Shown: positions 6,342 to 24,751, counted from the stretch's first letter. The stretch: DNA of 32,000 bases from Sphingobacterium daejeonense (GCF_042678525.1 NZ_JBHTKY010000007.1); one strand, 5' to 3'. A program made the numbers and translations. Notes: generated by a model not told the origin, from the sequence alone.

Positions 6342-6409
6342 TAATATTATTTTAAATTACATTAATGGCTAAAAAGGGTAGGAAGGGGGCATAAAAAAAT
6401 ACCAAGCGA

Positions 6410-6490
6410 TCATTGCTTTTCCCTACGCCGGTTTTAACCGTATCAGGTTCAAAGGGACTCTCTCAATTCTTTTCAGAATACCCCTAAAGC
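6410..6490 (-). promoter_or_regulatory. TPP (THI-box) riboswitch in the leader of thiM-thiE-thiD-tenA
   Basis: The minus-strand sequence reads AGGGGTATTCTGAAAAGAATTGAGAGAGTCCCTTTGAACCTGATACGGTTAAAACCGGCGTAGGGAAAAG. This contains the conserved CUGAGA, ACCCUUUGAACCUGAU-like and GCGUAGGGAA elements of the THI element, about 70 nt upstream of the thiM ATG. Confidence 0.85.
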
Positions 6491-6549
6491 CAAATCAAAG
6501 ATAGCCTAAACAATCTGCAAAGTCAAATTATAAAGGCTATCTCGAATTC

Positions 6550-8241
6550 TTATGAGTTTAATAAGACTTTAATACGAAGTATGGTGTCGCGGTCTTTTTG
6601 TTTTTCACTCTCACTGAGAATTTCCCATGGAATCAAGGAGGGATGCAATTTGAGTTCATCGTTCCTTTCTTCCCCAAAATCCCAACCGTTGATATAGCGA
6701 TGTGCCATCCAACGGTTATGTTCGATTATGGCTAAGGTTTCTACCTCATCTGCTGTGAACATTATGTTTTGAGGTTCATGAACTGGCCAGTTTTTGCCAG
6801 TCATTAAAAACTTATAAGGTATATGATCTGCTTGTGCCCGATTGGCGTCTTTAGCATCTTCTGTCAAGGTATGCCAATCAGAAGTGTATTTCGAAGATTC
6901 GGAACTTGCTCCAGAAAGTAATTTTCTGTAATCATCATGAATAGACTGGGCTAAACGATCTTGTTTTTCGCCAGTAATAAATTCTAAGTCACAAATATCT
7001 TCCATTTGACCAAAAAACTTGATCCTGTCAATTTCATCAGAAGAACGGATTAACTTCCGAAGGCCCTTACCTTCTGCATTCAAAACATAAATAGGAAAGG
7101 AGACTTGTTGAGTTTTGTTCAATATCTCTAAAGCAGCATTCAGGTTTTGCTGATCTTGATCGAAACAGGTTATAAACAAAACATCCGAATCCTTGTCCAC
7201 TAATTTCTCCTGTTCTATCACTTCATTGTATGATCCATCAAAATTTTTAAAGACAATTGGGAATATTTTCTGAGCTTTAGGATATTGCTCTTGAAAATAT
7301 TTGCTGTCTTTATCGGCTTTTTCAGAATAGATGGAAACTTGAAGGTCATTTGCAGTTGAAATATGGAATATTCTCATCACTTGAATCAGCATCGCTTTCG
7401 CAAAATCACCATATCCCAAGAATACTATTTTTTTAATATCAGACAATTGCTTTCCACTTGATTGCATATCCAATGGAATTTGAGCAAAGAACTGTCGCGC
7501 TAACATCTTTTGGATGTTGAAGAAATGTAGGTCGATATTGTTTTTCTGAAAATGAATGCCTGTATTCTTAACAAGGTCAATTAAACGAGGATTACTAATA
7601 TGCAAATATGCTTTTAGATGATTTGGGCATTTAGATTCATCATAGATGTCCTGTATAGACTCTATGATTTCAATAACAGTTTGTTCATTTTCCAAAAAAG
7701 CAATTAGAGTTGATGCTCTCTTGATTCCAGCTTCGATGAGGGTATTTTCCTCCTCAGCATTTCCAATGATTACAATATGTCCTAGTTTTTTGACAGAATT
7801 AATATCGGCATGTTCAGTTTCTTTTTCAATTGCTACAGCTTTTTTATGGTGTTCTTCTTTCAGGTTTTTAAACAGCTGTCTACCTTTTTTGGAAATCCCT
7901 ACAGAGATGACGTGATCTTTTTTAAATGATGCTTTTAACAAATTCAGTTGTTCAGAAAAGACCTTTTGGATAATTTTGAAAGCACCAAAAATCAGGATAC
8001 CAATAGTGCATATCTTAGCAACAATAAGTTCCCAAGGTACATCATTGTCTTCTAAACCTGATGCTGTTGGGTCACCCCCAAAAACAATCTTTATGATTCT
8101 GTAAATCCTATCAGGTAAGTATCTTAGGGTGTTACTTTCCGGGAAAAACTTGGATAACCCAACCCATGAAATAATAATCAAAAAAACTATGAATAATATC
8201 CCTAAAAGTCCTTTCTGCCGTCTTGTTAATTTCATGTTCAT
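6550..8241 (-). CDS. Membrane protein: 2 N-terminal TM helices, two TrkA-N/RCK-like Rossmann modules, and a C-terminal RyR (ryanodine-receptor repeat) domain
   Basis: TM helices: GLLGILFIVFLIIISWVGLSKFF and LIVAKICTIGILIFGAFKII. RCK-like 1: HVISVGISKKGRQLFKNL...HIVIIGNAEEENTLIEAGIKRASTLIAFLENEQ. RCK-like 2: KKIVFLGYGDFAKAMLIQV. RyR repeat: EHNRWMAHRYINGWDFGEERNDELKLHPSLIPWEILSESEKQKDRD. Its start shares one base with the stop of the upstream propeller gene (TAATG, 8239-8243). Confidence 0.75.
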   Translation of the reverse strand: MNMKLTRRQKGLLGILFIVFLIIISWVGLSKFFPESNTLRYLPDRIYRIIKIVFGGDPTASGLEDNDVPWELIVAKICTIGILIFGAFKIIQKVFSEQLNLLKASFKKDHVISVGISKKGRQLFKNLKEEHHKKAVAIEKETEHADINSVKKLGHIVIIGNAEEENTLIEAGIKRASTLIAFLENEQTVIEIIESIQDIYDESKCPNHLKAYLHISNPRLIDLVKNTGIHFQKNNIDLHFFNIQKMLARQFFAQIPLDMQSSGKQLSDIKKIVFLGYGDFAKAMLIQVMRIFHISTANDLQVSIYSEKADKDSKYFQEQYPKAQKIFPIVFKNFDGSYNEVIEQEKLVDKDSDVLFITCFDQDQQNLNAALEILNKTQQVSFPIYVLNAEGKGLRKLIRSSDEIDRIKFFGQMEDICDLEFITGEKQDRLAQSIHDDYRKLLSGASSESSKYTSDWHTLTEDAKDANRAQADHIPYKFLMTGKNWPVHEPQNIMFTADEVETLAIIEHNRWMAHRYINGWDFGEERNDELKLHPSLIPWEILSESEKQKDRDTILRIKVLLNS

Positions 8242-10610
8242 TACTTACTAAGATTCTGTATAGCTTCCTTGAGAAGGTTTTCAACTTCAGTTTTTAATTC
8301 CTTGTTTTTGATTTTTAAGAGCTGTTTGTCTGTAATTTCAACTAATCTTTGGCCAATTAATTTTGTGTCAGGATTACTGCTGAAATAATTGGCAACCATC
8401 GCTCGTGCCAATGGATGATAATCATAAGTTACTGCCAATAACTGCAAATTAGCCTCATTCTTGATCGGATAATTCTTCTTCAAAACATCCGTGATTTTTT
8501 CATTTGAACTCGGAGAAACAGTTCTTAAGAATGGGTCTTCAAAATACCAAGTGTTATAGTCTCCTGTGCTGTCGGTATAATTTAAGATAGCTCCAGTCTC
8601 ATTATCATATTTCTTGCCATAAAATTTTTCCAAATCCCTTGCCAATTGTTCTTTTGACATACTTACTTGCCCTGGCGTTTCCCAAACATGGATTGCCATT
8701 CCATTAACCAAAGACTCCACAGTCATAATCTGTTTATCACCTGGCATAATATAGATGCCATCGAATTTTTGATTGATAAACGGCATCGTTAGAATATTCC
8801 CTGATTTTGCATCAACGACTTTTGCGGCAAAAGCAAATCTCTCACCATCATCCTGAACAAAAATCTTTGAATCATCATCCGAAAAGTGGAAATATTGCGT
8901 AAACCTACTGATCCGAATATTTTGGCCGAAGGATTTTTTGGTTTCCAAATTCCAAAGTCGCATGTGTGTAGCATCTTCAGATAAGGCCATTACGTTCCCC
9001 TCGTTATTGAAAACTATAAACGGCGCTGCAATGGTCTTAACCTGAAATATTGGTTTATAATCTGAAGTTTTCAAAACTTTCGCATCTCCACTTTTGCTGA
9101 TGATAACCAAGTATTCGCTAGTTGGACTAAAAGCGCCACTATTAATGGTTTCTTTTCCCTCGGCTAAGACTTTCTTGGATGCAATATCCATGATGGACCA
9201 GCCATCAGGTTTCACCATCACCACGGTTTTGAAATCTGGACTTACAGTAAACCCAGGAATATCTTGGTCAATCGCAAAATTAAGAGTCTGTTTACCGGTA
9301 GCAATATCCCAAGCAGCGAAACTTTTATTGCTTGTCCTGGCCATAACTTCGGTTTCGTCCTTATTGAAGATGTAAGTTTTTACTTGGGAATCAAATGGCT
9401 TCCCAACAGGTTTGCCATTGCTGGCATCAAAGAAATAGGTTTTGCCACTTATTCCCTTGACCAATATCTTTTTACTTTTTTGAAGAACTAAAAAAAGTGC
9501 TATTTCTTCTGGAATCTTGACGAACTCATTGTTTTTTTGACCTGTCTTTAAGTTCAACTTTGCCAACGCGGGTTTGCCCTTATATCTTAAAAATGCTTCA
9601 TCATTTGTGATTCCAGGATGGGCATGTGACAATCCTCCTTCTTCATAATATTGAGCCACCCTTAATGGGGTGGTGTTTTTGTTTTCTATAAATGTTTGCG
9701 AATTATTACTCACTAGATATTGGGACCAGTCGGGCGATGTTGCATCTTCGTCACTAGGATCCTTTTCCATCATTTTCATCAAGTCTGTCAAGAAGAAGAT
9801 ATTCCGCGGTAATTCTGTGTTCTTTAATGTAGATCCATTATTGGTATTCACCTGTACAATCTGAGCTTCATCACCGATATATAAATTACCATTGTCAGTG
9901 AATCCCACAAACTTGATGTAAAATGGACCAGGTAAAAACCAATTGATACCGTTGCTTTTATTAAAATAATATAAGCCTTCAGAATTACGAAAAGCAATTT
10001 GATTGCCATCCTTGCTAAAGGCAGGAGGGTTTGAACCCAATTTGGTCGACTTTTTGAAAATTTCCTTTGGTATATCGGTTGCCAAATCATAGATAGTCAA
10101 TTCATTACCTTCACTCAAGCTACGGCTGATATACAAAGTTTTTGAAGTCTTGTCAAAATAAGCTGATGTAGGGACCAGTTGATCATTTTTGATCAATATT
10201 TGCTCCTGTTTGGTTACTGTATTAAAAAAAATAACATCTTTTGATTGTTTGTTGATGACTATGAATTTAGAATCTGGAGAAATGGCGGTAAGTGAAATAA
10301 AACTACTATCAAGATTAGGACGAAGGATATCTTTTTTATCATTAGCCATATTATATCTGACGATTTCAAGATCAGAATTGACTACATAAGCATTGTCTTT
10401 CTCGTCAAATTGGGGGAATCGAGGCTGGTTAGAAGATATATCATCTCTTTGTACCAACTGTTTTCTGGTTGTTGCATCCCATACTTGCAATACATTGCTA
10501 TTGTCTCCAGCACTAGCAAATCCAACAATCCATTTACCATTGGGCGAGAATCTAATGCCGCCAAAATTTATATTGGGCATTCTGATCAAATCTTCTTGTA
10601 CCGCTAACAT
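8241..10610 (-). CDS. WD40/PD40-like beta-propeller repeat protein (789 aa), no signal peptide
   Basis: Recurring blade signatures: IRFSPNGKWIV...VWD, ISPDSKFIV, FSKDGNQIAF, VSPDFKTVV, FSPTSEYLV, HFSDDDSKIFV. The last ~170 aa are non-repeat. It starts at an ATG that overlaps the stop of the TIR ORF. Confidence 0.8.
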   Translation of the reverse strand: MLAVQEDLIRMPNINFGGIRFSPNGKWIVGFASAGDNSNVLQVWDATTRKQLVQRDDISSNQPRFPQFDEKDNAYVVNSDLEIVRYNMANDKKDILRPNLDSSFISLTAISPDSKFIVINKQSKDVIFFNTVTKQEQILIKNDQLVPTSAYFDKTSKTLYISRSLSEGNELTIYDLATDIPKEIFKKSTKLGSNPPAFSKDGNQIAFRNSEGLYYFNKSNGINWFLPGPFYIKFVGFTDNGNLYIGDEAQIVQVNTNNGSTLKNTELPRNIFFLTDLMKMMEKDPSDEDATSPDWSQYLVSNNSQTFIENKNTTPLRVAQYYEEGGLSHAHPGITNDEAFLRYKGKPALAKLNLKTGQKNNEFVKIPEEIALFLVLQKSKKILVKGISGKTYFFDASNGKPVGKPFDSQVKTYIFNKDETEVMARTSNKSFAAWDIATGKQTLNFAIDQDIPGFTVSPDFKTVVMVKPDGWSIMDIASKKVLAEGKETINSGAFSPTSEYLVIISKSGDAKVLKTSDYKPIFQVKTIAAPFIVFNNEGNVMALSEDATHMRLWNLETKKSFGQNIRISRFTQYFHFSDDDSKIFVQDDGERFAFAAKVVDAKSGNILTMPFINQKFDGIYIMPGDKQIMTVESLVNGMAIHVWETPGQVSMSKEQLARDLEKFYGKKYDNETGAILNYTDSTGDYNTWYFEDPFLRTVSPSSNEKITDVLKKNYPIKNEANLQLLAVTYDYHPLARAMVANYFSSNPDTKLIGQRLVEITDKQLLKIKNKELKTEVENLLKEAIQNLSK

Positions 10611-11575
10611 GGAATGAGCAATAAGGCTGCGCTTTCATCGCCCCGGCGTGTAGCTTCGGCAATATAAGCTGCACCGTCACCATACTCACTCTCCGTAAGC
10701 TTGTTTATTCCTGATGCATATAATGATTTTGCTAAATTTTTCAAGGCTGAATTCCTTTGATTCCATGCGAAGATGCCCGCCAATATTGCAATGACTCCTA
10801 ATGCCCCAATTGCTGTTGCAATCCTTTTGATATTCCTGTTTTTCTGCTTTATTTTTTCTAATTGATAGGCTTGGTCTCGTTTGGTTAATTCTGCCAATGG
10901 CACACCTAAGATTCCAGAAATAATCTTTAACAATGCAAGGTCGAGTCGTTTTTTGTATTCATCGACCAATCCTTTTATTTGATGATTTGGTGTACCTTTA
11001 TCATGCAAATATCTTCTGTATCCTTCTGCTGAGGTGAACCCTTCTTCTTGCGTGTTTGGAATTCTGACATCTGCAGCCAATACTTCCTCGGGTTGATCAT
11101 AAAGGATTTTTCCAGTTTCGTCAATGTTATACCTCAACTCATCAGGAAAACATTGGGCATCGGTATTTTCCTTACCATATTCTGGTTCGCCTTTTATGAT
11201 CAGAGCGATAATTTTTTGAGATTTTCCAGTTTGCTTAAAATATTTAAGTTCATCCCGTACATAAGTTGATCTTGCTGATTTGGGAGAACTCAAATAAATA
11301 AGGAATTCAGAACGGTCTAAGGCTGATGTTAAGGAACCACTAAGGCTAGAACTAGCTGATAATTCTTTTTCATCTTGAAAAACAGGATATATCTGCCTGG
11401 GGATTTCTTCGCCGGCAGCATTCTTCTTTCCAATTAAATCCTCGGGGATTTCATAAGTTTCTAATGCATGATGCAACCAATCTGCCCACTTTCTGCCTTC
11501 CCCTTGATTGTCACTATGGCTATAACTAATAAATGCTTTGTATTTTTTTGTTAGGTCCTGATCTTGATTTTCCAT
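10604..11575 (-). CDS. TIR domain protein with one C-terminal TM helix (possibly the N-terminal part of a split TIR-TM-propeller gene)
   Basis: TIR_2-like motifs: KAFISYSHSD, YPVFQDEKEL, FLIYLSSPKSARSTYVRDELKYF (Glu in the position of the NADase catalytic Glu). TM helix IATAIGALGVIAILAGIFAW (aa 252-271), followed by only 52 aa. There is a 7-nt overlap (ATGTTAG) with the next ORF. Confidence 0.8.
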   Translation of the reverse strand: MENQDQDLTKKYKAFISYSHSDNQGEGRKWADWLHHALETYEIPEDLIGKKNAAGEEIPRQIYPVFQDEKELSASSSLSGSLTSALDRSEFLIYLSSPKSARSTYVRDELKYFKQTGKSQKIIALIIKGEPEYGKENTDAQCFPDELRYNIDETGKILYDQPEEVLAADVRIPNTQEEGFTSAEGYRRYLHDKGTPNHQIKGLVDEYKKRLDLALLKIISGILGVPLAELTKRDQAYQLEKIKQKNRNIKRIATAIGALGVIAILAGIFAWNQRNSALKNLAKSLYASGINKLTESEYGDGAAYIAEATRRGDESAALLLIPC

Positions 11576-11826
11576 AAATACAATTTTTGGTTGAGTTGTC
11601 GATTTTCAATAGACAAAAACCAAACCTTTTTCTATAAATTTTAATAAAGAGTGATAAAAAACTGTTTAGTATTTAATTTGATTAAGAAAAAATCAATAAT
11701 TTTTAATTGATGTTATAACGTTATTTCAACTATTTTAAAAATTATGTAATCATTTTCGAACAGGCAGTTGAACAATTTCGGAAGGATTTTTTCTTATTGT
11801 CCTGAATGCTGTTTAATATACTCTTA

Positions 11827-11980
11827 TTCCACTCTTGTTCCACTCTCGTTCCACTCTGAGTCTTCTTTCCTTCGGACCTCGTTCGGACCTTGTTCGGGTG
11901 TTTTCCGAAGCAGCTCCGAACGAGGTCCGAACAAAGTCCGAACAAGAGACGAAGGAGAGTGGAAGGAGGTAGGAAGGAGA
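11827..11980. repeat. 11-nt periodic tandem repeats arranged as a long imperfect palindrome
   Basis: TTCCACTCT at 11827, 11838 and 11849 (period 11). TTCGGACC at 11871 and 11882, plus TTCGG at 11893 (period 11). These are then mirrored as CCGAA 11905 and 11916, GGTCCGAA 11924, AGTCCGAA 11935 and AGAGTGGAA 11956. There is a perfect 16-bp arm pair: TTCGGACCTCGTTCGG (11871-11886) with CCGAACGAGGTCCGAA (11916-11931). Confidence 0.85.
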
Positions 11981-12027
11981 ATAGCAGAAACCTTGCAGAC
12001 TTGGAGGCCACGATGGCCATTGTTGCT

Positions 12028-12064
12028 GTTCCTGGTCGCCATGGTTGGTGTCGTTACCAACCAT
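12028..12064. repeat. Partial copy of the hairpin repeat family (GTTCCTGGTCGCC + ATGGTTGGT/ACCAACCAT hairpin)
   Basis: GTTCCTGGTCGCCATGGTTGGTGTCGTTACCAACCAT. It has the same leader and stem as the copies at 12095-12167 and 12496-12570, with a different loop. Confidence 0.8.
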
Positions 12065-12094
12065 CAATCGACGCCATGGCTGGTATCATTGTTG

Positions 12095-12167
12095 CCCATG
12101 GTTTTTGGCAGCACGAAAGGGGTATGGTATCCCTGGACGCCATGGTTGGTGTCCTCACCAACCATCT
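12095..12167. repeat. Dispersed ~75-nt repeat, copy A, ending in the 10-bp hairpin ATGGTTGGTG-TCCT-CACCAACCAT
   Basis: CCCATGGTTTTTGGCAGCACGAAAGGGGTATGGTATCCCTGGACGCCATGGTTGGTGTCCTCACCAACCATC. It aligns colinearly with copy B at roughly 80 percent identity (by eye), and the terminal hairpin (12142-12165) is identical. Confidence 0.85.
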
Positions 12168-12495
12168 TCATCTGATCTAACTTTCACTAATGAATAATGC
12201 CATTTCATGGCAAGATGCAGTTACTTTTGAGGCGCAAAAGTAACCAAAACGCTTGCTCATTTAAGGTGGCTTGTCGCACAAGTCCAACGCACATGGACAA
12301 AAATGCCTTATTGCCGAGGATGCCGTTCTAATCAATTATCTCTTTTGAGGAGATAATTGCTTGAAAGCATCCAAGGGCAAGGCAGACGCACAGAGGCCGC
12401 GGCATTTTTTCCATCTTTCCGCCACTGAAAATGAGCGGGATTCGGCTTCGAATAAACAATTGGGTTGCAAAACGTCAGGGTTGGTGTTCCTGGTC

Positions 12496-12570
12496 GCCAT
12501 GGTTGCTGGCAGCTCGAAAGCCATGGATGGTGTTCCTGGTCGCCATGGTTGGTGTCCTCACCAACCATCA
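12496..12570. repeat. Dispersed ~75-nt repeat, copy B, ending in the 10-bp hairpin ATGGTTGGTG-TCCT-CACCAACCAT
   Basis: GCCATGGTTGCTGGCAGCTCGAAAGCCATGGATGGTGTTCCTGGTCGCCATGGTTGGTGTCCTCACCAACCATC, with the hairpin at 12545-12568. Confidence 0.85.
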
Positions 12571-12630
12571 TTTTTGATAGTCTACGTTGCACTAGGTGAC
12601 CTTGGATTTTTAGTGGCAGGTGGGGACACC

Positions 12631-12712
12631 TGCCACGGCGAGCAGAGACACCTGCCTCCGCTACCAGACACTACTGCCACGGCGAGCAGAATCTCCTGCC
12701 GCGGCGGTTAGG
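12631..12712. repeat. Two tandem ~44-nt units sharing the core TGCCACGGCGAGCAGA...CCTGCC
   Basis: TGCCACGGCGAGCAGA occurs at 12631-12646 and 12675-12690 (spacing 44). Both are followed by NNNNCCTGCC. They are preceded by the hairpin GGCAGGTG-GGGA-CACCTGCC (12615-12634). Confidence 0.8.
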
Positions 12713-12716
12713 CCCT

Positions 12717-12760
12717 AAAAACGAGAAAAGCTCGGATTTCACCGAGCTTTTCTATTTTAT
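12717..12760 (-). terminator. Rho-independent terminator of yceI
   Basis: GAAAAGCTCGG (12725-12735), loop ATTTCA, CCGAGCTTTTC (12742-12752). On the minus strand the stem is followed by TCGTTTTT, and it lies about 20 nt after the yceI stop. Confidence 0.8.
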
Positions 12761-13765: not shown

Positions 13766-16700
13766 CTAAACTCTTGTCATTCGTTGTGATTCTATTTTAT
13801 TAATATCTTGTATTGTTATGTCGTTTATATTTACCATCTTCTCAAGATGTCCACGGTTTAGTAGCTTAATGTTGTTTGACTTTGCTAATATCGTTGCCGA
13901 TGAGCTGTAATCATTGTTGGTTATGGTCAGTAAGTTGAATTGTTCTTTAAATTTGTCCTCGTAGTAATTCTTTGCTGTACAAATTTCTTGTATTGCTTCG
14001 TTTCCAACCAATGATTTTGTTTGTTTGGCTTGTATAAGATAATTTTCTCCATTCTTCAAAACGACAACATCAACTCCTTTATCGTTGGAATATGGTGTAA
14101 GATAAACTTCAAAACCTTGTTTTTTGTATAATGCTGCAATTGTCGCTTTAAACAAGTTTGGATTCAATCGGTCTATGTCTGTAATTGTTTGAACCTTTGC
14201 TTTACTTTCTGTTTTTGTACCAAAAATGTTTCCAAATAATTCGTCTGGTGTCAATTCTGCTTGTTCGGTCGGGAACAATGTATTACTTGCCAAAGCTTTT
14301 TTATTATTCAATAAAGTGTCAAGAATTTCATCAAAGGATTTCAATCTGTTACCTTCTTCGTCTTTCATATCGTCAGGGAAAATAGCCATTGGATAATATA
14401 CGAATACATCTTTTTGTTGCCCTATTCTATAAGCTCTGTCCGTTGCTTGTTCCTCTTTTGCAGGATTCCAATGTCTTGTATAATGTACAATGTGGTTTGC
14501 TTTGGTTACGTTTAACCCCACACCTGCGGCAATAGGCGACATAATAATTACATTAAATCCATCCTCTGCTTGAAAACGGTCAATGGTTTGTTGTCTGCTT
14601 AATTTTGATTTTCCTTCAAGTTGCTTTGTAGTCGGTGTATCTCCGTTAATAATGCTGGTAAATATTCCGAAAGTGTCATAGACGATTTTTTGCAACATTT
14701 TTTGTGTTTCTCTTCTGTCTGCAAACAAAATCACTTTTTCGGCTTTTGATTGTATGTCAGCTAATACTCCAATTGTCGTTTGTAGTTTGGATGAACTTGC
14801 AATAAGTTCATCGCTTGTGAAATTCAAAATTTGACTTTCTAATAAAAATGGATGGTCAGAAATATCTCTAACTGCCCAAAGTGATTTTAGTTTTTGATTT
14901 CTTTTTTCTACTCCTTCTAATTCGGAATTATTTGCCATTTCAATTTCCTGCATGTAGCGGTTTAATTGAATTGGTGGCATTACTTTCTTAATTCTTGATT
15001 TTTCGTTATCGTGTTTTGTTGGCAAATCTTTTGCTACATCTCTTTTCAATCTTCTTTTGATAAAAACGCCAATATTATTACGAAGCTGTTCTGTCAATGC
15101 TATAATGTCGGTGTTTTCATCACTCAATGGCTTTTGATATTCCTTCGCAAAGTCTTTTGCATTTCCTAAAAGTCCGGGAACTGCAAAGTCCATTAAACAC
15201 CAAATATCCACCAACGTATTTTCTACTGGAGTTCCTGTCATTGCAATTTTAAAATCTGCCTTTAAAGCTTTACTTGCATTGGTTATTTGTGTTCCTGGTG
15301 TTTTTATTTTTTGTGCTTCGTCCAGAGCTATTACTGCAAAATCAACCAGTCCCAAACTAATTTGATGCGACCTTACTGTTTCGTAGTTGGTTAAAATTAT
15401 TTGTTTGAATTGTAATCGTTTAGCGTCTTGCTGATTTTTTGCTGGATTGTTTTCTTTTGTCAAAGAAACCGAACCATACAATTTGCACAATGGTAGATTT
15501 TGTGGACTGAAAAATTTCTGATATTCATTTTCCCAATTTTCGAGCAAGCTAACTGGTGCGACAATTAAATAAGGTTTGTTATCATCACAATGTTGGCAAT
15601 GCCATTCAAGAAAATACAATAATTGCAAAGTCTTCCCTAATCCCATATCATCAGCCAACAACCCACCTGCAAAGTTTTCTGTGAACAAGGATTGTAACCA
15701 GGAAATCCCTTCCTTTTGGTGTTCTTTTAAAGCAATCCCATTTTCCAAATTGGAAATGCTATAAAAGTTGTGTTTTAAGTTTTCGGGTAACTCATTTCCA
15801 TTTGAAAATTCAGTCAGTTCTGCATTTTCTTTAATTATAAGTACTTCGTGGTCTGTTTTCTTTTCTTGCTTTATAGGTTTATTTGGATTTTCAAATTGCT
15901 TCTTAGCGGTTTTAATAAATTTTTCAGCTTCTTCAATTGGTATTTCTGCATCTTCCCATTGAACTGTTTGCTTATTTTCCTTAACTGCATTCTCTTTTTG
16001 CTCTATGAAATTAGAGAGCTTTTCTTGTGACTTAAAATAGATTCTCTTTTCTCCGTGTACCTTGTCTTTTATTACAATTCCGGGAATCCATTGTGATTTA
16101 TAAGGACTTGCGAAAGGGTAAAACTTTGGACTGTAAATGCCAATTTCTTTTACTCTGTCACTATAAAAAACAGTAAAATCTACTTCCTCATCATTAAAGA
16201 ACAATTCAGGGTGTTCAATAATTTCTTGAATGTCGTTACGGTCTGAAACTTTTCTTTTCGCTTTTACTTTTTGAAGTTCTGTTTTTTGATTTTCAGAAAT
16301 CACTACTCTCGTTGTTTCGCCATTATTTCCCGATACTGGATAAACATCCCGAATCATCGGCAATTTATCAAACGTATTTGTAAAACCTATTGCGTTTTCA
16401 ATTTCTACAGAAGGCAAAATTTCAAGAACTCCATTGTTAAAATCAATGTCTAATTTTATTCTTTCAGGGATAAACAACTCTTGATTACTAAGAAATTGTT
16501 CTAATGTAGAACCACTTTGTTTTGATAATGATTTTAGTTCCGAAAGCTTTTTGAAATTGGTTACATTTCCTTTTTCATTTTCGGGTAAACTGTTGAATTC
16601 ATCAATTGCTTGACAAAGTAAAAATTGGTTTTCAGATAGTAAATATTCGCTCTCTTCAACTTTTATTAACGCTCCGTTTCTCGTTGTTTTTAATCTTGTT

Positions 16701-17038
16701 CCGTTAGGTGCAAAGTCATAAAATCCATATTTGAACTTAAATGAATTGTGAGTTAAAGTTCCGTCTGATTCTACAAAAATATCATACGGATAACTGTTTG
16801 GCAAATCCAATATTTGCTTATCAATATCGTTTAACCTTAAAATATAAATACTTTCAATTTTGCAAGATTTGTCTGTATAATCTGCTAATCCATTATCGTG
16901 TAATTCTGTAAGAATTGCAATTTGTGATAAAAATTCTGTTTGTAATTTCTCCCATTCTGAAACAGGAACTTTGCTTCCCGATTCGTTTAGGAAGTAAAAT
17001 GAAAATCTATTACTGTCGTATAAATATTTTAAAATCAT
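13766..17038 (-). CDS. SNF2-family helicase fused to a C-terminal Mrr-like PD-(D/E)xK restriction endonuclease domain; ~440-aa N-terminal domain of unknown function (ZorD-like)
   Basis: SNF2 motifs: GGLLADDMGLGKTLQLL (I), VIALDEAQKIKTPGT (II, DEAQ), AMTGTPVEN (III), GGVGLNVTKANHIVHYTRHWNPAKEEQATDRAYRIGQQKDV (V/VI). C-terminus: YKKQGFEVYLTPYSNDKGVDVVVLKNGENYLIQAKQTK matches the Mrr_cat pattern D-x-G-[IV]-D ... [IV]-Q-A-K. There is a 4-nt ATGA overlap with the upstream ORF. Confidence 0.85.
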   Translation of the reverse strand: MILKYLYDSNRFSFYFLNESGSKVPVSEWEKLQTEFLSQIAILTELHDNGLADYTDKSCKIESIYILRLNDIDKQILDLPNSYPYDIFVESDGTLTHNSFKFKYGFYDFAPNGTRLKTTRNGALIKVEESEYLLSENQFLLCQAIDEFNSLPENEKGNVTNFKKLSELKSLSKQSGSTLEQFLSNQELFIPERIKLDIDFNNGVLEILPSVEIENAIGFTNTFDKLPMIRDVYPVSGNNGETTRVVISENQKTELQKVKAKRKVSDRNDIQEIIEHPELFFNDEEVDFTVFYSDRVKEIGIYSPKFYPFASPYKSQWIPGIVIKDKVHGEKRIYFKSQEKLSNFIEQKENAVKENKQTVQWEDAEIPIEEAEKFIKTAKKQFENPNKPIKQEKKTDHEVLIIKENAELTEFSNGNELPENLKHNFYSISNLENGIALKEHQKEGISWLQSLFTENFAGGLLADDMGLGKTLQLLYFLEWHCQHCDDNKPYLIVAPVSLLENWENEYQKFFSPQNLPLCKLYGSVSLTKENNPAKNQQDAKRLQFKQIILTNYETVRSHQISLGLVDFAVIALDEAQKIKTPGTQITNASKALKADFKIAMTGTPVENTLVDIWCLMDFAVPGLLGNAKDFAKEYQKPLSDENTDIIALTEQLRNNIGVFIKRRLKRDVAKDLPTKHDNEKSRIKKVMPPIQLNRYMQEIEMANNSELEGVEKRNQKLKSLWAVRDISDHPFLLESQILNFTSDELIASSSKLQTTIGVLADIQSKAEKVILFADRRETQKMLQKIVYDTFGIFTSIINGDTPTTKQLEGKSKLSRQQTIDRFQAEDGFNVIIMSPIAAGVGLNVTKANHIVHYTRHWNPAKEEQATDRAYRIGQQKDVFVYYPMAIFPDDMKDEEGNRLKSFDEILDTLLNNKKALASNTLFPTEQAELTPDELFGNIFGTKTESKAKVQTITDIDRLNPNLFKATIAALYKKQGFEVYLTPYSNDKGVDVVVLKNGENYLIQAKQTKSLVGNEAIQEICTAKNYYEDKFKEQFNLLTITNNDYSSSATILAKSNNIKLLNRGHLEKMVNINDITIQDINKIESQRMTRV

Positions 17039-17868
17039 CCGAATACTTTTTTGTTCATCCAGCTATTAAATCTTGTTTCCCAAATTTGGTTACCATCTCT
17101 GTGCGTTAATCTCCCTTCATCGTTAAAGTAATCGTAGTAATTATCGCTATGAACTGCCATTGGCATAGAACCATTACGCAAGTCATCAACACTGTTTAGT
17201 TGGTAGTTTAAACTTGGTCTTAACGAGCTGTTGATTTTATAAGCATAGAAGGCGTAGCCTTCGTTGCTAAATTCAATCAACATATAATCGCCAATGTACA
17301 ATATGAATGCAGAAACATCTCTTTTGCTTGAAACTGTTTCAAATCTTGCATCTACATATTCGGCTATTCTTTCATCACGTTTTAATATGTTTTTTGTGTG
17401 AAGCGGTCCAAATACTTTAAAGGAAGATATTTTTGAAGCAAAACGAAGCCAAAATTTCTTTCGTCTTTCATCATTGATACAAACATTGAAAAACACATTG
17501 ATAAATTGTTGCGTAATCCACTCGTTCAAAATATTTCGTCCTTGAATTATTTCTCGCTTTTCGATTTCTGTTGCATTCTCAAATGCTGTCCAATTAGAAA
17601 TATTACTTGGGTCGCCAATTTGAGTGAAGGCTATTTTTTTTATTTTATCTTGTACTGTTGCAAATTGAGGTTGGTTTGCTTGGATGATAATTTTACTGAT
17701 TAACCTTTTACTGGTAACTGAACTGTTGTGTTTTTCCAAAACCTCATTTAGGTTTTCAACTTCATCGGCAATTTTGCTTTTGTTTCTTTCGTAATAAGTT
17801 ACAATAACTTTCGAGAAATATGGATAGTCGACCCGATTTCGAATTTCATAGCCAACTTTAAACGCCAA
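17035..17868 (-). CDS. Hypothetical protein coupled to the SNF2-Mrr gene; possible EH-signature (ZorC-like) domain; probably 5'-truncated
   Basis: The stop overlaps the SNF2 start (ATGA at 17035-17038). There is no ATG start: the first possible initiator is TTG at 17868-17866, with an in-frame stop 7 codons upstream. The C-terminal pattern YMLIEFSNEGYAFYAYK...GRLTHRDGNQIWETRFNSW has a conserved-looking Glu, then His 41 or 57 residues later, then aromatic residues. This is reminiscent of the EH-signature domain that partners SNF2 ATPases. Confidence 0.55.
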   Translation of the reverse strand: MAFKVGYEIRNRVDYPYFSKVIVTYYERNKSKIADEVENLNEVLEKHNSSVTSKRLISKIIIQANQPQFATVQDKIKKIAFTQIGDPSNISNWTAFENATEIEKREIIQGRNILNEWITQQFINVFFNVCINDERRKKFWLRFASKISSFKVFGPLHTKNILKRDERIAEYVDARFETVSSKRDVSAFILYIGDYMLIEFSNEGYAFYAYKINSSLRPSLNYQLNSVDDLRNGSMPMAVHSDNYYDYFNDEGRLTHRDGNQIWETRFNSWMNKKVFG

Positions 17869-17880
17869 TTCAAAAACACA

Positions 17881-18107
17881 AAGGGTTTAGGTCTGGGCAG
17901 GCTTTTCGGGGGCAAACCTGCTGAACCACCAAAGCAACCTGCCGAAAGCGTAATAGGTGCGACAAAAACGGTTATGCGTTCGGATTATAAAAATGCTGAA
18001 AACAATCAGACCGTACAGACTAATAAAAAGCCTGCTTTAAAAATGGACAATTCAAACAAAATACAACAGGCTCGTTCAAAAAACAAGAAACCAAAGTTGA
18101 GATTATA
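17881..18107 (+). pseudogene. 5'-truncated ORF remnant (Lys/Pro-rich C-terminal tail), likely leftover of a mobile-element gene
   Basis: An ATG-less open frame reads KGLGLGRLFGGKPAEPPKQPAESVIGATKTVMRSDYKNAENNQTVQTNKKPALKMDNSNKIQQARSKNKKPKLRL-stop. Its 5' side runs into the divergent 277-aa ORF, so the start and promoter are missing. Confidence 0.4.
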
Positions 18108-18208
18108 GCTGAGTATTTAGCATCTGAACGCCAAATGCAACCTTTGACTACAACAATACAATGATCTATGTGAATAGCTTTTATTTTCGAGGTTTAAATT
18201 ATACAGAT

Positions 18209-18475
18209 ATGGAAATAACAGTTTTAGACATTCAGATTTTAAAGGCATTGCATAGGGAAGTAAAGGAAGTTTCCAATTTGATAGCGGAAATAACTGCATC
18301 CTACAAAGCACTTCAACAGGCAACGAAATGGCTTGACCAGCAGGAAGCCTGCCAACTCCTCAATATCAGCAAAAGAAAATTGCAGACTTACAGGGCAAAG
18401 GGCATTCTCGGGGCAACGCAAATCAATCGGAAGACTTATTTCAGATTATCCGAAGTGGAGTTACTTATGCAGTGA
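18209..18475 (+). CDS. Helix-turn-helix (excisionase/MerR-like HTH_17) DNA-binding protein
   Basis: WLDQQEACQLLNISKRKLQTYRAKGILGATQINRKTYFRLSEVE is the typical Bacteroidota mobile-element HTH motif. The start is chosen at ATG 18209 (MEITVLD). The track ORF starts at 18161. Confidence 0.7.
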   Translation: MEITVLDIQILKALHREVKEVSNLIAEITASYKALQQATKWLDQQEACQLLNISKRKLQTYRAKGILGATQINRKTYFRLSEVELLMQ

Positions 18476-18550
18476 GAGCGACCATTAAAAAAGCAAAAGA
18501 GATGAACCCTGAAAGGCTCCATCTAACCATTAAAAAAAATAAAAGAACAG

Positions 18551-18832
18551 ATGAAACATATTGGAAATTCAAACGAGGATATGCTTGCACTGCTTGAAGC
18601 TGTGGTAGGCATCAAAAATGAACTGCTGTATATCAGGGAATATTTCCACCCATTGTTAAAAGGGGAAATCTACCTGTCAGGCGAACAGGTTTGTGAGATG
18701 CTTCACATCAGCAAGCGGACGTTGCAACAATACAGAGATGACGGACTGATACCTTTTATCAAGCTCGAACGGAAAATTCTTTTCCGTGAAAGTGATATTG
18801 TAAAAGTATTGGAAGATAATTATCAGCGTTAG
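18551..18832 (+). CDS. Helix-turn-helix (excisionase/MerR-like HTH_17) DNA-binding protein, paralogue of the preceding gene
   Basis: YLSGEQVCEMLHISKRTLQQYRDDGLIPFIKLERKILFRESDI has the same motif architecture as 18209..18475. Tandem pairs of such genes accompany Bacteroidota integrases. Confidence 0.7.
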   Translation: MKHIGNSNEDMLALLEAVVGIKNELLYIREYFHPLLKGEIYLSGEQVCEMLHISKRTLQQYRDDGLIPFIKLERKILFRESDIVKVLEDNYQR

Positions 18833-18836
18833 CCGA

Positions 18837-19646
18837 TTAAACCTCGTCATTTGCAAACCCCTTGTTGGTGACGAGTATTTTTTCAAAATAACGAATTGGA
18901 TTTGCCATTCCTCTAATTTTAGGAACTTCTTTATTCATATATATATCAAGAATTTCTTTTGAAGTAACTTCTGAACCTTCAAATCCCCATCTTTTAACAC
19001 CTCTATTTTCAATATCTTGAACCCATTTTTCAGGTTTAAATACCGCTCTTATTACGCCTTTATATTCTGCTAAAACAAAATCTGAATTTTCTGCTCTGTT
19101 TTTGTCTAATACCCACCACCCTCTGGTTGCTTCATAAATATTTGGTCTGTCATAAATTGGGTTCTCACTTTTCTTTTTTCGTTTATTATCGTATGTTTTG
19201 TTTATATTGATTACTAAAATGTTATGCTTAATATCTTCGTTTTTTAATACTTCACAATTGTAAAGTATTTCACACTCACTCACCGTTTTAATACCCTGAT
19301 TAAATGAATAATGTCCTGCAACAATATTTGAAATTTTCGCAATCTCCGCAAAATCCTTAAAAGTTAAAAAATCAATTAAAACAGATTCAACTATTAGCGC
19401 TTCATTTTCTTCTAATCCGTGTCTAACTATAAAGTGTTTTACTTTTAGATTTTCTAATTTAATCGCTCTAATAATCTCTAATTTTTCAGTTCCGCTTGGG
19501 TTGAATATCGCTTCATTAATATGAAAAAAAACACGATTCCCATAACCTTTTCCAACATAGAATATTTTGTTATCTCGTGGGTCTATTAGAATATAAACAT
19601 AAGATTTTAATTCTTCTTGTGCCTTTTGTGAAAATTGTTCAATCAT
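18837..19646 (-). CDS. GIY-YIG nuclease domain protein with an uncharacterised C-terminal domain
   Basis: The start is taken at ATG 19646 (MIEQFSQKAQEELKSYVYILIDPRDNKIFYVGKGYGNRVFFH, which is GIY-YIG motif Y-x-Y ... YVGKG). The 66 upstream codons of track ORF 18837..19844 cross a terminator hairpin and the integrase remnant. The C-terminal part (RGWWVLDKNRAENSDFVLAEYKGVIRAVF...KRWGFEG) is unassigned. Confidence 0.7.
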   Translation of the reverse strand: MIEQFSQKAQEELKSYVYILIDPRDNKIFYVGKGYGNRVFFHINEAIFNPSGTEKLEIIRAIKLENLKVKHFIVRHGLEENEALIVESVLIDFLTFKDFAEIAKISNIVAGHYSFNQGIKTVSECEILYNCEVLKNEDIKHNILVININKTYDNKRKKKSENPIYDRPNIYEATRGWWVLDKNRAENSDFVLAEYKGVIRAVFKPEKWVQDIENRGVKRWGFEGSEVTSKEILDIYMNKEVPKIRGMANPIRYFEKILVTNKGFANDEV

Positions 19647-19671
19647 ATTTTGTTGTTTTATTGACTTCAAA

Positions 19672-19708
19672 AATACAAAAAAGGCAATGCAGTTTCTTGC
19701 ATTGCCTT
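19672..19708 (-). terminator. Rho-independent terminator downstream of the truncated integrase copy
   Basis: AAGGCAATGCA (19681-19691), loop GTTTCT, TGCATTGCCTT (19698-19708). On the minus strand it is followed by TTTTTTG. Confidence 0.7.
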
Positions 19709-19731
19709 TCTTTAATCGCTTTAAATTGGTT

Positions 19732-20170
19732 TCAGAGTTGCGAAACAAAAGAGCGTTCCATACCCTTAAATTTATGTGAAACCTTTTGCATATCCTTTCC
19801 GACTTTCTCGTTGAGTATCTTGGCGTAAATCTGTGTGGTGGCAATATTCTTATGCCCTAACATCTTGCTCAAACTCTCCAACGGAACGCCCTCGCTCAAA
19901 AACAACGTAGCAAACGTATGTCGTGCCAAATGAAAGGTTACTTTCTTTTCTTTCAAGCAGTCGATTTGTTCGGATATCGCACTTAATCTATCGTTGCAGT
20001 AGCTGTTAGACGGAACAGGAAAAACCTTGCCGTCCTTTGAAAATCCTGCATATTTTTCGATAATCATTTTTGGAATATCCAACAGCATTACATTGGATGA
20101 TGTTGCTGTCTTTTTCCTACGTACAATAATCCACTGGTTGCCGTCAAAGAATTCCTGAATATTGCTATTT
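19732..20170 (-). pseudogene. Truncated tyrosine integrase (3' third only), diverged paralogue of the intact integrase at 23325..24575
   Basis: 19729-20170 aligns colinearly with 23322-23765, with about 24 mismatches by hand alignment (~94-95 percent). The 118-aa translation differs from the intact copy at 2 residues (LSAISEQ vs LSTISKQ) and keeps the catalytic-region motifs HLARHTFAT and GHKNIATTQIY. Homology stops abruptly at about 20170. Confidence 0.85.
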
Positions 20171-20564
20171 TACTCATTTAAGGTCTTGTTTTATCAACCA
20201 CTAAATTACAAAAAAGCCAACGGAAAAAACATTCACGTTTCTGCAATGTCAAACTCTCTTTTATCTTGACTATTAGTGCTTAAAAGTAACTTGTATTGGA
20301 TCCAACACAATTGTGGATACAGTGCGTGCACATTCTCAAATCTACGGTAAAACAGTCTATAAAGGATTATTTGTCCTGTGGAAAAACAACTTCCGACCTC
20401 GGGTTATAGTTGTTGTAGGTTGAAAACGTACTTTTTAAAGTGAAATTGGTATCTTTTTTGTTGTGGCTATATGATTAATAATCAAAGTTTTAATTGGTAA
20501 TATACTTTTAGTCCTTACCATACCACTATAAAAAAGAGTAATTAATAACGATTTATACTTTACC

Positions 20565-21524
20565 ATGAAAAGAAGTTATTTTGTTTACGTCATTCAGGTC
20601 AGTCTCATTTCAATATTATTTTTGTCTTGTACCAAAAACGATGATAAGGACGATGGAGGCAGCCTAGCCCTGACAGGTCATATTTACCATCAATACACCT
20701 CCGATGTAATGAAAATTGATATGCGAACGGGGCAGGAAACAAGCTTTTTTTCCTATAGCGCCTATAGTACGGTGGGCTGGGATTTGAGCAGAGATGGAAA
20801 ACTCCGTATTGTCTCCACGAGAGAGCCAGGGACATATGACCGTAATCTCTTTACCATTGTAAACACGGCAAATGATCAAATTATCAAATCATTTGAATAC
20901 GTTCCACGCAACGGGAACAGCATCAGAAATACGGGTAAAATTTCATTTGACAACTCGATGATTCTGGTCGCTCCAGATGCTGATAATGGGATAACCATTA
21001 TGGATATGGATGGTGATATCAAATATGAGATGACCGGAATCGGAGATGAACCCTTCTCAACAAGCGACGATGCGTATTGGTTGCCTGATAATAATATTTT
21101 GGTTCGCTTTCAAAACAAGCTTCTAAGATCTGCCCCACCTTATAATAACCTGACGTTGGTGAAAGAGATGAATTACGAAAAATGGGGAAATGTAAGGATA
21201 AGCAACAATGGACAGAAAATCAGCATGTATATCAATAAACATATCTTTTTGATGGATGCTAACGGAAGTAACCTTGTGCAGGTTACCGATAGTAATGGAG
21301 ACGAAGCATTCGGTGAATTTTCCCCTGATGATAAATTTTTACTGGTCGGCTCGGATTATTTCCATGCACCGGCATCCGGGAACAGCCATTGGTTCCTGAA
21401 GGTTATCCCAGCAGACGGCAAAAAATACAATATGGATTCCGGCCCGGAAGTTATTTCCGTAATACCGACCGGAGAAACATCGATTGTCCGGGCAAATGGG
21501 ACAACAGTATGGCGACAACAATAG
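20565..21524 (+). CDS. Lipoprotein with PD40/TolB-like beta-propeller repeats
   Basis: Lipobox ILFLSC followed by TKNDDKDDGG. Repeats of the type SRDGKLRIVS, ISNNGQKISMY...MDANGSNLVQVT and FSPDDKFLLVGSD. Confidence 0.65.
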   Translation: MKRSYFVYVIQVSLISILFLSCTKNDDKDDGGSLALTGHIYHQYTSDVMKIDMRTGQETSFFSYSAYSTVGWDLSRDGKLRIVSTREPGTYDRNLFTIVNTANDQIIKSFEYVPRNGNSIRNTGKISFDNSMILVAPDADNGITIMDMDGDIKYEMTGIGDEPFSTSDDAYWLPDNNILVRFQNKLLRSAPPYNNLTLVKEMNYEKWGNVRISNNGQKISMYINKHIFLMDANGSNLVQVTDSNGDEAFGEFSPDDKFLLVGSDYFHAPASGNSHWFLKVIPADGKKYNMDSGPEVISVIPTGETSIVRANGTTVWRQQ

Positions 21525-21528
21525 TTTT

Positions 21529-22218
21529 TTAATTGGCCACAGGTTCGACCAAAGCCAACATAGCTGACACCGCATCATGACTGTTCATCGGTTCTGGAGC
21601 GATTGCTTCATGTTCAGGATTTGAAGCGGGGCCAAAAGTTCCGGACAATGCAATCACTTGGTTGTCCTGATTATTGATATGGGCAAGCCTAATGTACAGC
21701 TCGTACCGCCAATCACCTTTTTCATTATTCCTGTAACGCAGGGCAAATACGTTCTCATAAGGCGCTTTCCCTAATCTTCCATCAGCAACTTCCTCCATAT
21801 CGGAGAACATTGCCAATATCTCATCCTTTGTATCTTTTCCCATTCCAGTCTGTGCCTTAATGGAACGCCAACCATATACATAATCATTAATGTCTTTTTT
21901 AAAATTGACTGTATAATAATAGATATGCGGTATTGCCGGATAATTTCCTTCATTTGTGAAATTACCTTCTCCCTGTATCTCGTATCCCTGCATATGTTCT
22001 CCAAGCAAGTTTGCAACTTGATTAGCTGTAACAAGATGTTTCAACCGAACACCCGAACCTGATGTTTCTGTTGGCTCTTTATCGTCATTCGTACTACAAG
22101 CACACAGTAGTGTAAGTACCACTAACGAAAATGACAAAACCAATAGCTTGTTAAGTCTGGTAAAGATTGTTGGTATCATAGTATATTTCCTGCTTTCAAC
22201 ATTCATAATATTTATCAA
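21529..22218 (-). CDS. Hypothetical lipoprotein
   Basis: Signal/lipobox LVVLTLLCAC followed by STNDDKEP. The start is either ATG 22218 (4-nt overlap with the OmpA-like gene) or the internal Met at 22179 (MIPTIF). No recognisable domain. Confidence 0.55.
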   Translation of the reverse strand: MINIMNVESRKYTMIPTIFTRLNKLLVLSFSLVVLTLLCACSTNDDKEPTETSGSGVRLKHLVTANQVANLLGEHMQGYEIQGEGNFTNEGNYPAIPHIYYYTVNFKKDINDYVYGWRSIKAQTGMGKDTKDEILAMFSDMEEVADGRLGKAPYENVFALRYRNNEKGDWRYELYIRLAHINNQDNQVIALSGTFGPASNPEHEAIAPEPMNSHDAVSAMLALVEPVAN

Positions 22219-23234: not shown

Positions 23235-23324
23235 TTCAATGTTATAAATATTACTAAATAGCTAAAATACAAAAAAAAGCCAACGTAAAATAACATTGAC
23301 TTTCTTTAATCACATTATTAGTTT

Positions 23325-24575: not shown

Positions 24576-24751
24576 ACTCACAATTCTTAATGATAAAATT
24601 AAACTTATGTGAGCCACGGAACAATATGAAAAATTGAGCAAAAAGCTGAAATACAGTATTTTGAAGCGATTGTTTCCGATGTTTAAAAGTAACGTTTTAG
24701 TAACCTTACTTTTGCTAATCGTTGCTTTTTCCTGCTTTTTACCTCATTACC

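Follow-up and report, generated by a model that had tools for sequence, protein, structure and literature searches.

A candidate two-gene signalling module in Sphingobacterium daejeonense pairs a predicted transmembrane TIR receptor with an RCK-RyR membrane protein

The window analysed here is a 32,000-nucleotide stretch of DNA from Sphingobacterium daejeonense (GCF_042678525.1, NZ_JBHTKY010000007.1), and its minus strand carries two adjoining genes: gene A (8241-11575), which when intact encodes a 1111-amino-acid (aa) TIR-transmembrane (TM)-double-propeller receptor but is split in the window into two open reading frames (ORFs), and gene B (6550-8241), which is intact and encodes a 563-aa 2TM-RCK-RCK-RyR membrane protein. 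On balance, we judge it probable that the pair constitutes a membrane TIR signalling module, in which the TIR receptor makes an ADP-ribose (ADPR)-type signal that acts on an RyR/RCK-gated effector. An original prediction from this stretch had proposed that a sensor, a TIR generating the signal and an RCK-RyR reader in the membrane act together; this logic holds in light of the linkage of the two genes and of invariant pocket residues matching those of proteins that bind isomers of cyclic ADPR (cADPR).

The original prediction described a gap-free operon of three genes. The ORFs and junction overlaps that it noted are all present in the sequence: ORF 1 (10604-11575, minus strand, 323 aa) has the 7 nucleotides (nt) ATGTTAG at 10604-10610 in common with ORF 2 (8241-10610, minus, 789 aa), which meets ORF 3, here gene B (6550-8241, minus, 563 aa), at a TAATG in which base 8241 is shared. 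The three-gene arrangement, however, is not what relatives carry. Gene-neighbourhood look-ups with gene B homologues recovered the TIR and propeller parts as one ORF of 1107-1136 aa in every relative, and contig L006, which is 99% identical to the window, encodes a single 1111-aa TIR-TM-double-propeller protein. Across the gene pair, 74 substitutions separate the window from L006, and a single T is absent from the window (GCCTTATTTGC vs. GCCTTATTGC), located at window ~10619-10622 on the minus strand in a TTT run one T short relative to L006. This is the sole indel within coding DNA in the 12.2-kb window/L006 alignment.

The intact protein reads ...ESAALFAHSMLAVQED... across the frameshift site, and ORF 2 begins within it at M323, an internal methionine that is invariant in 19 loci. 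Because the 1-nt deletion gives rise to the stop of ORF 1, and ORF 2 starts at this invariant residue, the 7-nt overlap is a frameshift scar and not a mark of operon coupling. The TIR and propeller ORFs of the window are one gene, gene A, and the true unit has two genes. The propeller is thus covalently joined to the TIR protein and predicted to be periplasmic, and is not a separate soluble sensor with its own gene. Programmed frameshifting and a real three-gene operon were both considered and are ruled out by 40+ relatives with one continuous ORF.

Close homologues, P0047 and P0117, also come from S. daejeonense (98-99% identity), and the intact P0117 is 99% identical to the two halves of the window gene. 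Hydropathy analysis of the window propeller ORF revealed no TM segment or signal sequence; without a TM anchor, the fragment has no route to the periplasm, and the window copy is probably inactive, barring an assembly error.

A genome scan for gene B homologues (one genome per GTDB species) gave 34 loci, and a metagenome scan gave 30; the loci were not de-replicated. The TIR-propeller gene lies directly upstream in 25 of the genome loci, while four have a partial propeller that extends as far as the contig end, three have no upstream DNA and two are distant outliers. Among the metagenome loci, the full upstream gene is present in 18, with five partial propellers, one deletion remnant and six loci too short for a decision. 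The two genes lie side by side in every locus (43/43) that has an intact gene B homologue of 35-81% identity and at least 3.3 kb of upstream DNA, and nine further loci show a partial propeller reaching the contig end. Spacing between gene A and gene B is -4 to +27 nt in most loci.

The hosts fall in Bacteroidota (Sphingobacterium), several Betaproteobacteria, Cardiobacteriaceae and Desulfobulbus, and include Advenella, Brachymonas, Diaphorobacter, Comamonadaceae, Dentiradicibacter, Neisseriaceae and Propionivibrio. This patchy spread across phyla implies horizontal transfer. The original prediction had asked whether a TIR, a propeller and an RCK-RyR protein co-occur across unrelated Bacteroidota; the TIR-propeller and RCK-RyR genes are adjacent in essentially all close relatives, in two phyla.

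Pfam searches with ORF 1 returned TIR_2 (2.6e-11) and ThsB_TIR (1.4e-05) as well as TIR, with the TIR hits exceeding the Pfam cut-offs, and ORF 2 matched many WD40/PD40-type propeller models. The TIR domain (aa ~10-170; 11066-11548, minus) contains Glu109 (codon 11249-11251) at the catalytic position, invariant in 19 loci and in alignment A2, which aligns at weak E-values of ~0.1 to the Glu of the plant TIR WCLDEL/WCLEEL motif. Single-sequence and profile searches of the PDB for the closest solved TIR yielded just weak plant TIR matches (E ~0.1), which do not indicate whether its product is 2'cADPR, 3'cADPR or another. In other bacteria, the same TIR subtype, at 35-47% identity, occurs in fusions with TPR, WD40 or FHA domains (P0056, P0068, P0073, P0078, P0092, P0094).

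The single TM helix of gene A spans aa 252-270 (10766-10822, minus; hydropathy 2.42), a segment conserved across loci. Lys and Arg make up 5 of the 15 residues in its N-terminal flank and 3 of the 15 in its C-terminal flank, and the protein has no N-terminal signal peptide; on account of the Lys/Arg-rich N-terminal flank and the lack of a signal peptide, the TIR domain is predicted to be cytoplasmic and the propellers periplasmic. In the AlphaFold model of P0117 (mean predicted local distance difference test score (pLDDT) 67.5; individual domains ~75-90), the parts run from TIR (aa ~10-165) through conserved helices and a long helix that takes in the TM segment to a conserved juxtamembrane segment, and then to two propellers and a helical C-terminus. 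The two β-propellers, which form the predicted extracytoplasmic sensor, occupy aa 336-596 and 639-922 of the full-length protein (8811-10571, minus), and the helical C-terminal domain occupies aa 1028-1110 (8247-8495, minus; pLDDT ~75-88). Foldseek matches of the full receptor model are dominated by generic tandem WD40 double propellers, which give no clue to the sensed ligand. The features first read from motifs in these ORFs are thus all borne out: a TIR domain with Glu at its catalytic position and one TM helix in ORF 1, and a large propeller region in ORF 2, which AlphaFold resolves into two propellers.

Pfam assigned both TrkA_N (1.2e-13) and RyR (6.4e-12; 46.0 bits vs. a cut-off of 27.4) to gene B, each above its cut-off, and hydropathy analysis placed TM segments at aa 11-29 and 73-91. 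The AlphaFold model (pLDDT 86, predicted template modelling score 0.79) extends these to TM1 at 7-32 and TM2 at 70-105, with a helix at 39-53. The membrane module (aa 7-105; 7927-8223, minus) comprises TM1, an outer loop carrying the 39-53 helix and a G55-x-D57-P58 motif, and TM2. The loop motif is invariant, as are W26, G28, P34, K51, K76 and K89 in addition to its G55 and P58, and the module as a whole retains 42% identity across phyla.

After the membrane module come two RCK/Rossmann domains in tandem (aa 111-241 and 271-410; 7012-7911, minus). RCK1 retains G115...G120 and E139, a dinucleotide-binding signature, in alignment A1; in Sphingobacterium, a Ser replaces the second Gly of GxGxxG. 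The original prediction had given this protein two TM helices, two TrkA_N/RCK modules and an RyR domain. The RyR domain, the two TM helices and one TrkA_N module were recovered, but the second RCK was missed by Pfam and is seen by structure only, where it is clear in the AlphaFold model and in Foldseek matches to tandem RCK proteins. Top Foldseek matches were GsuK (ADP- or NAD-bound), the TrkA gating ring, CASTOR, MthK and Slo1, with the TrkA ring bound to ATP-γ-S. Separate matches were found to RyR3 Repeat12 and to a Bacteroides-human RyR chimera. A fold search of a viral library placed phage RyR-domain proteins at the top, spanning the last 135-140 residues of gene B, and also matched a phage K+-channel protein.

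The C-terminal RyR domain (aa 427-562; 6556-6963, minus) is a four-helix domain of the Repeat12 type, supported by Pfam, PDB and phage-protein alignments; its PDB matches are RyR1/2/3 and a B. thetaiotaomicron RyR protein (E 2e-17 to 3e-8). We know of no function assigned to a bacterial RyR domain before preprints on phage proteins appeared in mid-2026. According to two such preprints, 2'/3'-cADPR made by TIRs is bound or cleaved by RyR-domain proteins of phages (PMC13232231; 10.64898/2026.06.04.730250). In RyDEP, from mycobacteriophage DyoEdafos, the contact residues are H75, W78, H100 and D117, with H75/D117 as the catalytic dyad; related phage proteins have nanomolar affinity for TIR-made signals, and 6 of 8 phage RyR proteins tested bound the signals without cleaving them (PMC13232231). 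Pectobacterium phage CB1 gp68 ("RyR Tad") binds 3'cADPR (dissociation constant 43 nM), 2'cADPR and cADPR, through H129/W132, K147/H154 and K170/D171 (10.64898/2026.06.04.730250).

DyoEdafos was absent from the tblastn matches in the phage collection, and gp68 was aligned instead. A gapless BLASTP alignment places gp68 129-171 over gene B 508-550, so that H129, W132, K147, H154, K170 and D171 correspond to H508, W511, R526, H533, K549 and D550. All six pocket residues are invariant in 31 gene B homologues (alignment A1), and distant homologues mostly keep the pocket, with H533 replaced by Asn in two and K549 by Tyr in two. The RyR domain is likely to be the signal reader of gene B.

Conservation across phyla is uneven. 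Identity is 66% for the TIR domain and 56% for the RyR domain, falling to 42% for the membrane module, 34% for RCK1 and 29% for RCK2; the propellers have diverged furthest, at 20-26%. TIR and RyR are thus the most conserved domains, a pattern that would be expected if the signal chemistry were fixed while the sensor and gating parts adapted.

Distant loci present related pairings in other arrangements. A 24%-identical gene B homologue (L044) has the reverse gene order, with gene B followed by a TIR-TM-WD40 partner. At L036, an RCK-RyR gene stands together with a gene for a DUF4062-NACHT-WD40 protein and with one for a second RyR-domain protein, and at L045 a DUF4062-NACHT-TPR gene and a small TIR_2 ORF lie beside the RCK protein. 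DUF4062 has been reported as a TIR-like NADase (2026 preprints). An hhalign comparison of the present TIR profile with the L036 DUF4062 gave no detectable similarity, and its TIR-like nature is therefore taken from those preprints. These three loci lend independent support to the pairing.

The second RyR protein at L036 (9980-12766), in a Hydrogenedentota metagenome-assembled genome, is 928 aa long with no TM segment, an N-terminal region that matched no assigned domain and a C-terminal RyR domain (4.2e-16), and adjoins both the RCK-RyR and the DUF4062-NACHT-WD40 genes. The wider RCK-RyR superfamily comprises at least 750 clusters at E <= 1e-30. In some members (P0161, P0215, P0275, P0297), the RCK unit is followed by 2-4 RyR repeats in tandem, as in animal ryanodine receptors, and one such tandem-repeat gene (L081) is followed by a Peptidase_C11-PEGA gene.

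In the mechanism that we propose, gene A would hold its N-terminal TIR domain in the cytoplasm, cross the membrane once and expose ~840 residues to the periplasm (juxtamembrane helices, two propellers and the helical C-terminus). A periplasmic or envelope cue would cluster the receptor; TIR active sites would then form and turn NAD+ into a signal derived from ADP-ribose, with a cADPR isomer the likeliest candidate. The signal would then occupy the RyR pocket of gene B, to which NAD or ADPR bound in RCK1 may contribute; the RCK ring would shift and an ion path open, with a change in membrane potential or in ion content. A defensive growth arrest and a reversible stress response are both conceivable as the outcome, and the evidence favours neither. 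The more specific version, in which gene B is an ion channel gated by a TIR-made cADPR isomer through its Repeat12-type RyR domain and gene A is a transmembrane "bacterial Toll-like receptor", is advanced tentatively, as a conjecture that may well prove wrong.

Several observations weigh against a TIR-to-RyR module, and they are considered here and in the next two paragraphs together with the alternatives. In the lineage of P0034 (40% identity; L046-L048), gene B stands without an adjacent TIR gene, and the partners sampled in the wider superfamily vary, including a cyclase domain (L079), a C11 peptidase (L081) and a methyltransferase with a small RyR protein (L082). At L079, a single short contig, the RCK-RyR homologue is 29% identical to gene B, and the overlapping upstream gene has an adenylate/guanylate-cyclase domain (3.1e-11) and no TIR (3-1205 and 1192-2913), a hint that RCK-RyR proteins may pair with different nucleotide-signal enzymes. 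PADLOC gave only weak TIR matches, all to gene A (1.2e-4, 8e-4), with neither the propeller ORF nor gene B matched, and in NCBIfam the Thoeris matches were far below cut-off and no system model fitted; that no named defence system would be matched by the three ORFs had been anticipated.

The molecular alternatives diverge on the role of gene B, whose pocket residues would fit a sensor, a sponge and a hydrolase alike. The loop of gene B contains no TVGYG-type selectivity filter; a search of all PDB sequences with the membrane-module profile (A3) found no channel pore, its only match at E<1 being a PsbY TM repeat; and hhalign of the module against the MthK pore gave a probability of 0.2%. With neither a filter nor detectable sequence similarity to solved pores, the term channel is drawn from the architecture, and we do not call gene B a K+ channel. 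A membrane-anchored binder or enzyme (a cADPR sponge or glycosidase), or an adaptor acting on another protein, would account for these negatives, for the presence of only two TM helices, and for RyR domains in soluble proteins of the wider family (L036, 928 aa; L042, 164 aa; L082, 95 aa). We consider it unlikely, however, in view of the well-conserved membrane module, the succession of two TM helices, helix-bearing loop and tandem RCK as in GsuK and MthK, with full-length GsuK among the best fold matches, and the phage K+-channel protein also matched. Sensing of NAD levels would instead have the TIR deplete NAD+ and RCK1 read the fall in NAD+ or rise in ADPR, in the manner of GsuK and of KTN/RCK domains, with the RyR domain as a buffer or an off-switch glycosidase for by-products rather than the main sensor. 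The RCK1 signature and the nucleotide-bound GsuK and TrkA folds fit this, and retention of the RyDEP dyad as H508/D550 could permit hydrolase activity; yet the RCK domains are the least conserved cytoplasmic parts, the Sphingobacterium GxGxxG carries its Ser, and most of the phage RyR proteins bind without cleavage, making this reading rather improbable. A reversal of direction, with RCK-RyR sensing ions, voltage or nucleotides and the TIR serving as an NAD-depleting effector, has precedent in the many bacterial TIRs that deplete NAD as effectors in CBASS, Pycsar, pAgo and Avs systems. It appears very improbable here, the TIR being fused to large fast-evolving repeats typical of sensors, the RyR pocket being a known receiver of TIR products, and Pfam finding no signal-generating enzyme in gene B.

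The biological role of the proposed TIR-to-RyR module, and its state in this genome, invite further alternatives. All Sphingobacterium loci hold the pair at one syntenic site beside housekeeping genes (YceI-GH31-[pair]-thiMED/tenA), and the flanks in other lineages, 67 ORFs in all, gave matches to nothing but type II Cas genes (Cas9/Cas1) and mad3, in two ORFs apiece; the accessory context claimed in the original prediction is accordingly weak. A pair serving housekeeping or environmental needs, in which the periplasmic sensor links an envelope or extracellular cue to ion flow controlled by a reversibly RCK-gated channel, with no anti-phage role, would suit the fixed site, the defence-poor flanks, the predicted periplasmic sensor, unlike cytoplasmic ThsB, and a gating ring typical of reversibly gated channels. 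Set against it are the patchy cross-phyla spread with its implied horizontal transfer, the fast divergence of the sensor, an RyR pocket that phages target against Thoeris, the proximity of some loci to HipA (L004) or Cas9/Cas1, and frequent pseudogenes and deletions, typical of costly accessory or defence genes; it stays a serious contender, if short of probable. A defence role is plausible from the transfer, the decay and the phage-targeted pocket, and we regard it and a physiological envelope-signalling role as about equally likely. The decay itself is considerable: ~7 of roughly 60 copies examined are disrupted, and the window copy is frameshifted. P0047, from a second assembly of the species, is frameshifted at another place, ~aa 271; L073 (5001-5466) has a 4.5-kb deletion that removed the receptor gene and ~400 gene B codons, leaving the last ~155; and stops or frameshifts affect gene B in L014, L037 and L067 and gene A in L017. 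Given this, and a deletion that parts TIR-TM from propellers left with neither TM nor signal sequence, it is an open toss whether the locus in this genome is a decaying, functionless pseudogene, a broken receptor gene with an orphaned effector gene. On the other side, the lone coding indel falls in a short T-run and is a possible assembly error, as some of the other disruptions could be, both halves are otherwise intact, gene B is intact, and in P0117, from a third assembly, the receptor gene is intact.

Downstream, the pair is bounded by a thiamine pyrophosphate (TPP) riboswitch (6403-6495, minus; Rfam RF00059, 73.7 bits), which lies between the gene B stop and thiM and heads a thiM-thiE-thiD-tenA operon (6341 down to 3443); the riboswitch marks the thi operon as a separate regulatory unit. 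On the other side, where relatives hold a 1284-aa GH31 gene, window 11600-12760 is GC-rich (~0.47) and non-coding. It contains a 24-nt palindromic hairpin (ATGGTTGGTGTCCTCACCAACCAT-like) in three copies, at 12041, 12142 and 12545, within four copies of a 56-nt direct repeat. Tandem units of 11 nt and 22 nt are present as well, as is an imperfect inverted repeat of 79 nt (11819-11983). The repeats in this stretch, which differ by indels between the window and L006, look like repetitive extragenic palindromic (REP) or miniature inverted-repeat transposable element (MITE)-type elements.

Beyond YceI, ~2 kb from the pair, the window contains an integrase-bounded island with defence genes (13766-24641, minus). 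It encodes a full-length ZorD (PADLOC E = 0) and only the C-terminal half of ZorC (17035-17868), with no ZorA or ZorB found adjoining them in the window, indicating a Zorya remnant. The island also holds a PD-T4-3-like GIY-YIG gene (18837-19844; 1.3e-46) and one resembling OmpA/MotB (22215-23234), and a tyrosine integrase gene lies at 23325-24641. The window has no tRNA gene.

Gating of animal ryanodine receptors by cADPR has been argued for decades. If the proposed module operates as described, it would be a compact prokaryotic counterpart of the disputed TIR/cADPR-to-RyR signalling axis, establishing the RyR domain as a receiver of TIR-made NAD-derived signals, and with two genes and one pocket it would offer a tractable test of cADPR-isomer binding coupled to ion gating. 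It would also provide the first host-side function for a bacterial RyR domain, possibly extending to the at least 750 RCK-RyR clusters, some of them with other nucleotide-signal enzymes. Bacterial TIR signalling would then reach from cytoplasmic ThsB to a predicted periplasmic sensor, with envelope cues possibly sensed before entry. The existence of phage RyR sponges and hydrolases would be explained, and these may have been captured from such host effectors.

In the text and the part of the tables of the Thoeris catalogue (Yirmiya et al. 2025) available to us, there is no RyR/TrkA effector and no TIR of the present kind. Neither the two RyR-domain preprints nor full-text literature searches yielded a description of an RCK/RyR-linked TIR pairing, and Kaur et al. 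2020 and 2021 (Aravind-lab conflict systems) contain nothing relevant on RyR- or TrkA-linked TIR. We found no prior description of a transmembrane TIR receptor paired with an RCK-RyR effector, and rate the pair as a Thoeris-like signalling variant.

Like Thoeris, the pair sets a TIR gene with its catalytic Glu beside a co-inherited effector gene with a small-molecule-binding domain, here one predicted to receive a TIR product, and an NAD-derived signal is proposed; no curated Thoeris model matches it. The effector is embedded in the membrane, as in type II (ThsC Macro-TM), type V (ThsF/DUF2270) and type X (the ion-channel effector ThsK) Thoeris. Gene A, however, is a 1111-aa single-pass receptor with a predicted periplasmic double propeller, whereas ThsB is small and cytoplasmic, and the reader is RyR (PF02026) with tandem RCK, not among the effectors found in the parts of the catalogue available. 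Type X has short, ThsB-like TIRs in the catalogue, unlike gene A. The Sphingobacterium pair also sits in no evident defence island, and a defence activity of the module is putative.

With RyDEP and RyR Tad gp68, gene B shares the Pfam family, the four-helix domain and six identically spaced residues (H, W, K/R, H, K, D). In the phages, however, the proteins are small and soluble and block immunity by sequestering the signal or cleaving it, whereas here the domain forms the C-terminus of a host membrane protein; its genetic coupling to a TIR enzyme implies a receiver role. GsuK is modulated by NAD+ and ADP. Gene B resembles GsuK, MthK and TrkA, its best structural matches, in having two TM helices followed by tandem RCK/Rossmann domains with a dinucleotide signature in RCK1, but it differs from them in its putative pore region, which has no TVGYG and no detectable similarity to theirs in sequence, and in the extra C-terminal RyR domain.

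Animal Toll-like receptors likewise connect a repeat sensor outside the cytoplasm, through a single TM helix, to a TIR domain inside it, which is the topology predicted for gene A, and the TIR-TM-WD40 layout recurs in the distant L044. The sensor is a β-propeller here and a leucine-rich repeat there, the TIR domains of animal Toll-like receptors are scaffolds and not enzymes, and the likeness does not imply that the systems as wholes descend from a common ancestor. The animal RyR repeat sits at the periphery of a six-TM Ca2+ channel of 5000 aa, and direct binding of cADPR by the repeat is unproven. The present pair resembles the SARM1/CD38-cADPR-ryanodine receptor axis in that a TIR domain, here a putative NAD cyclase, is linked to a putative channel protein with a Repeat12-type RyR domain.

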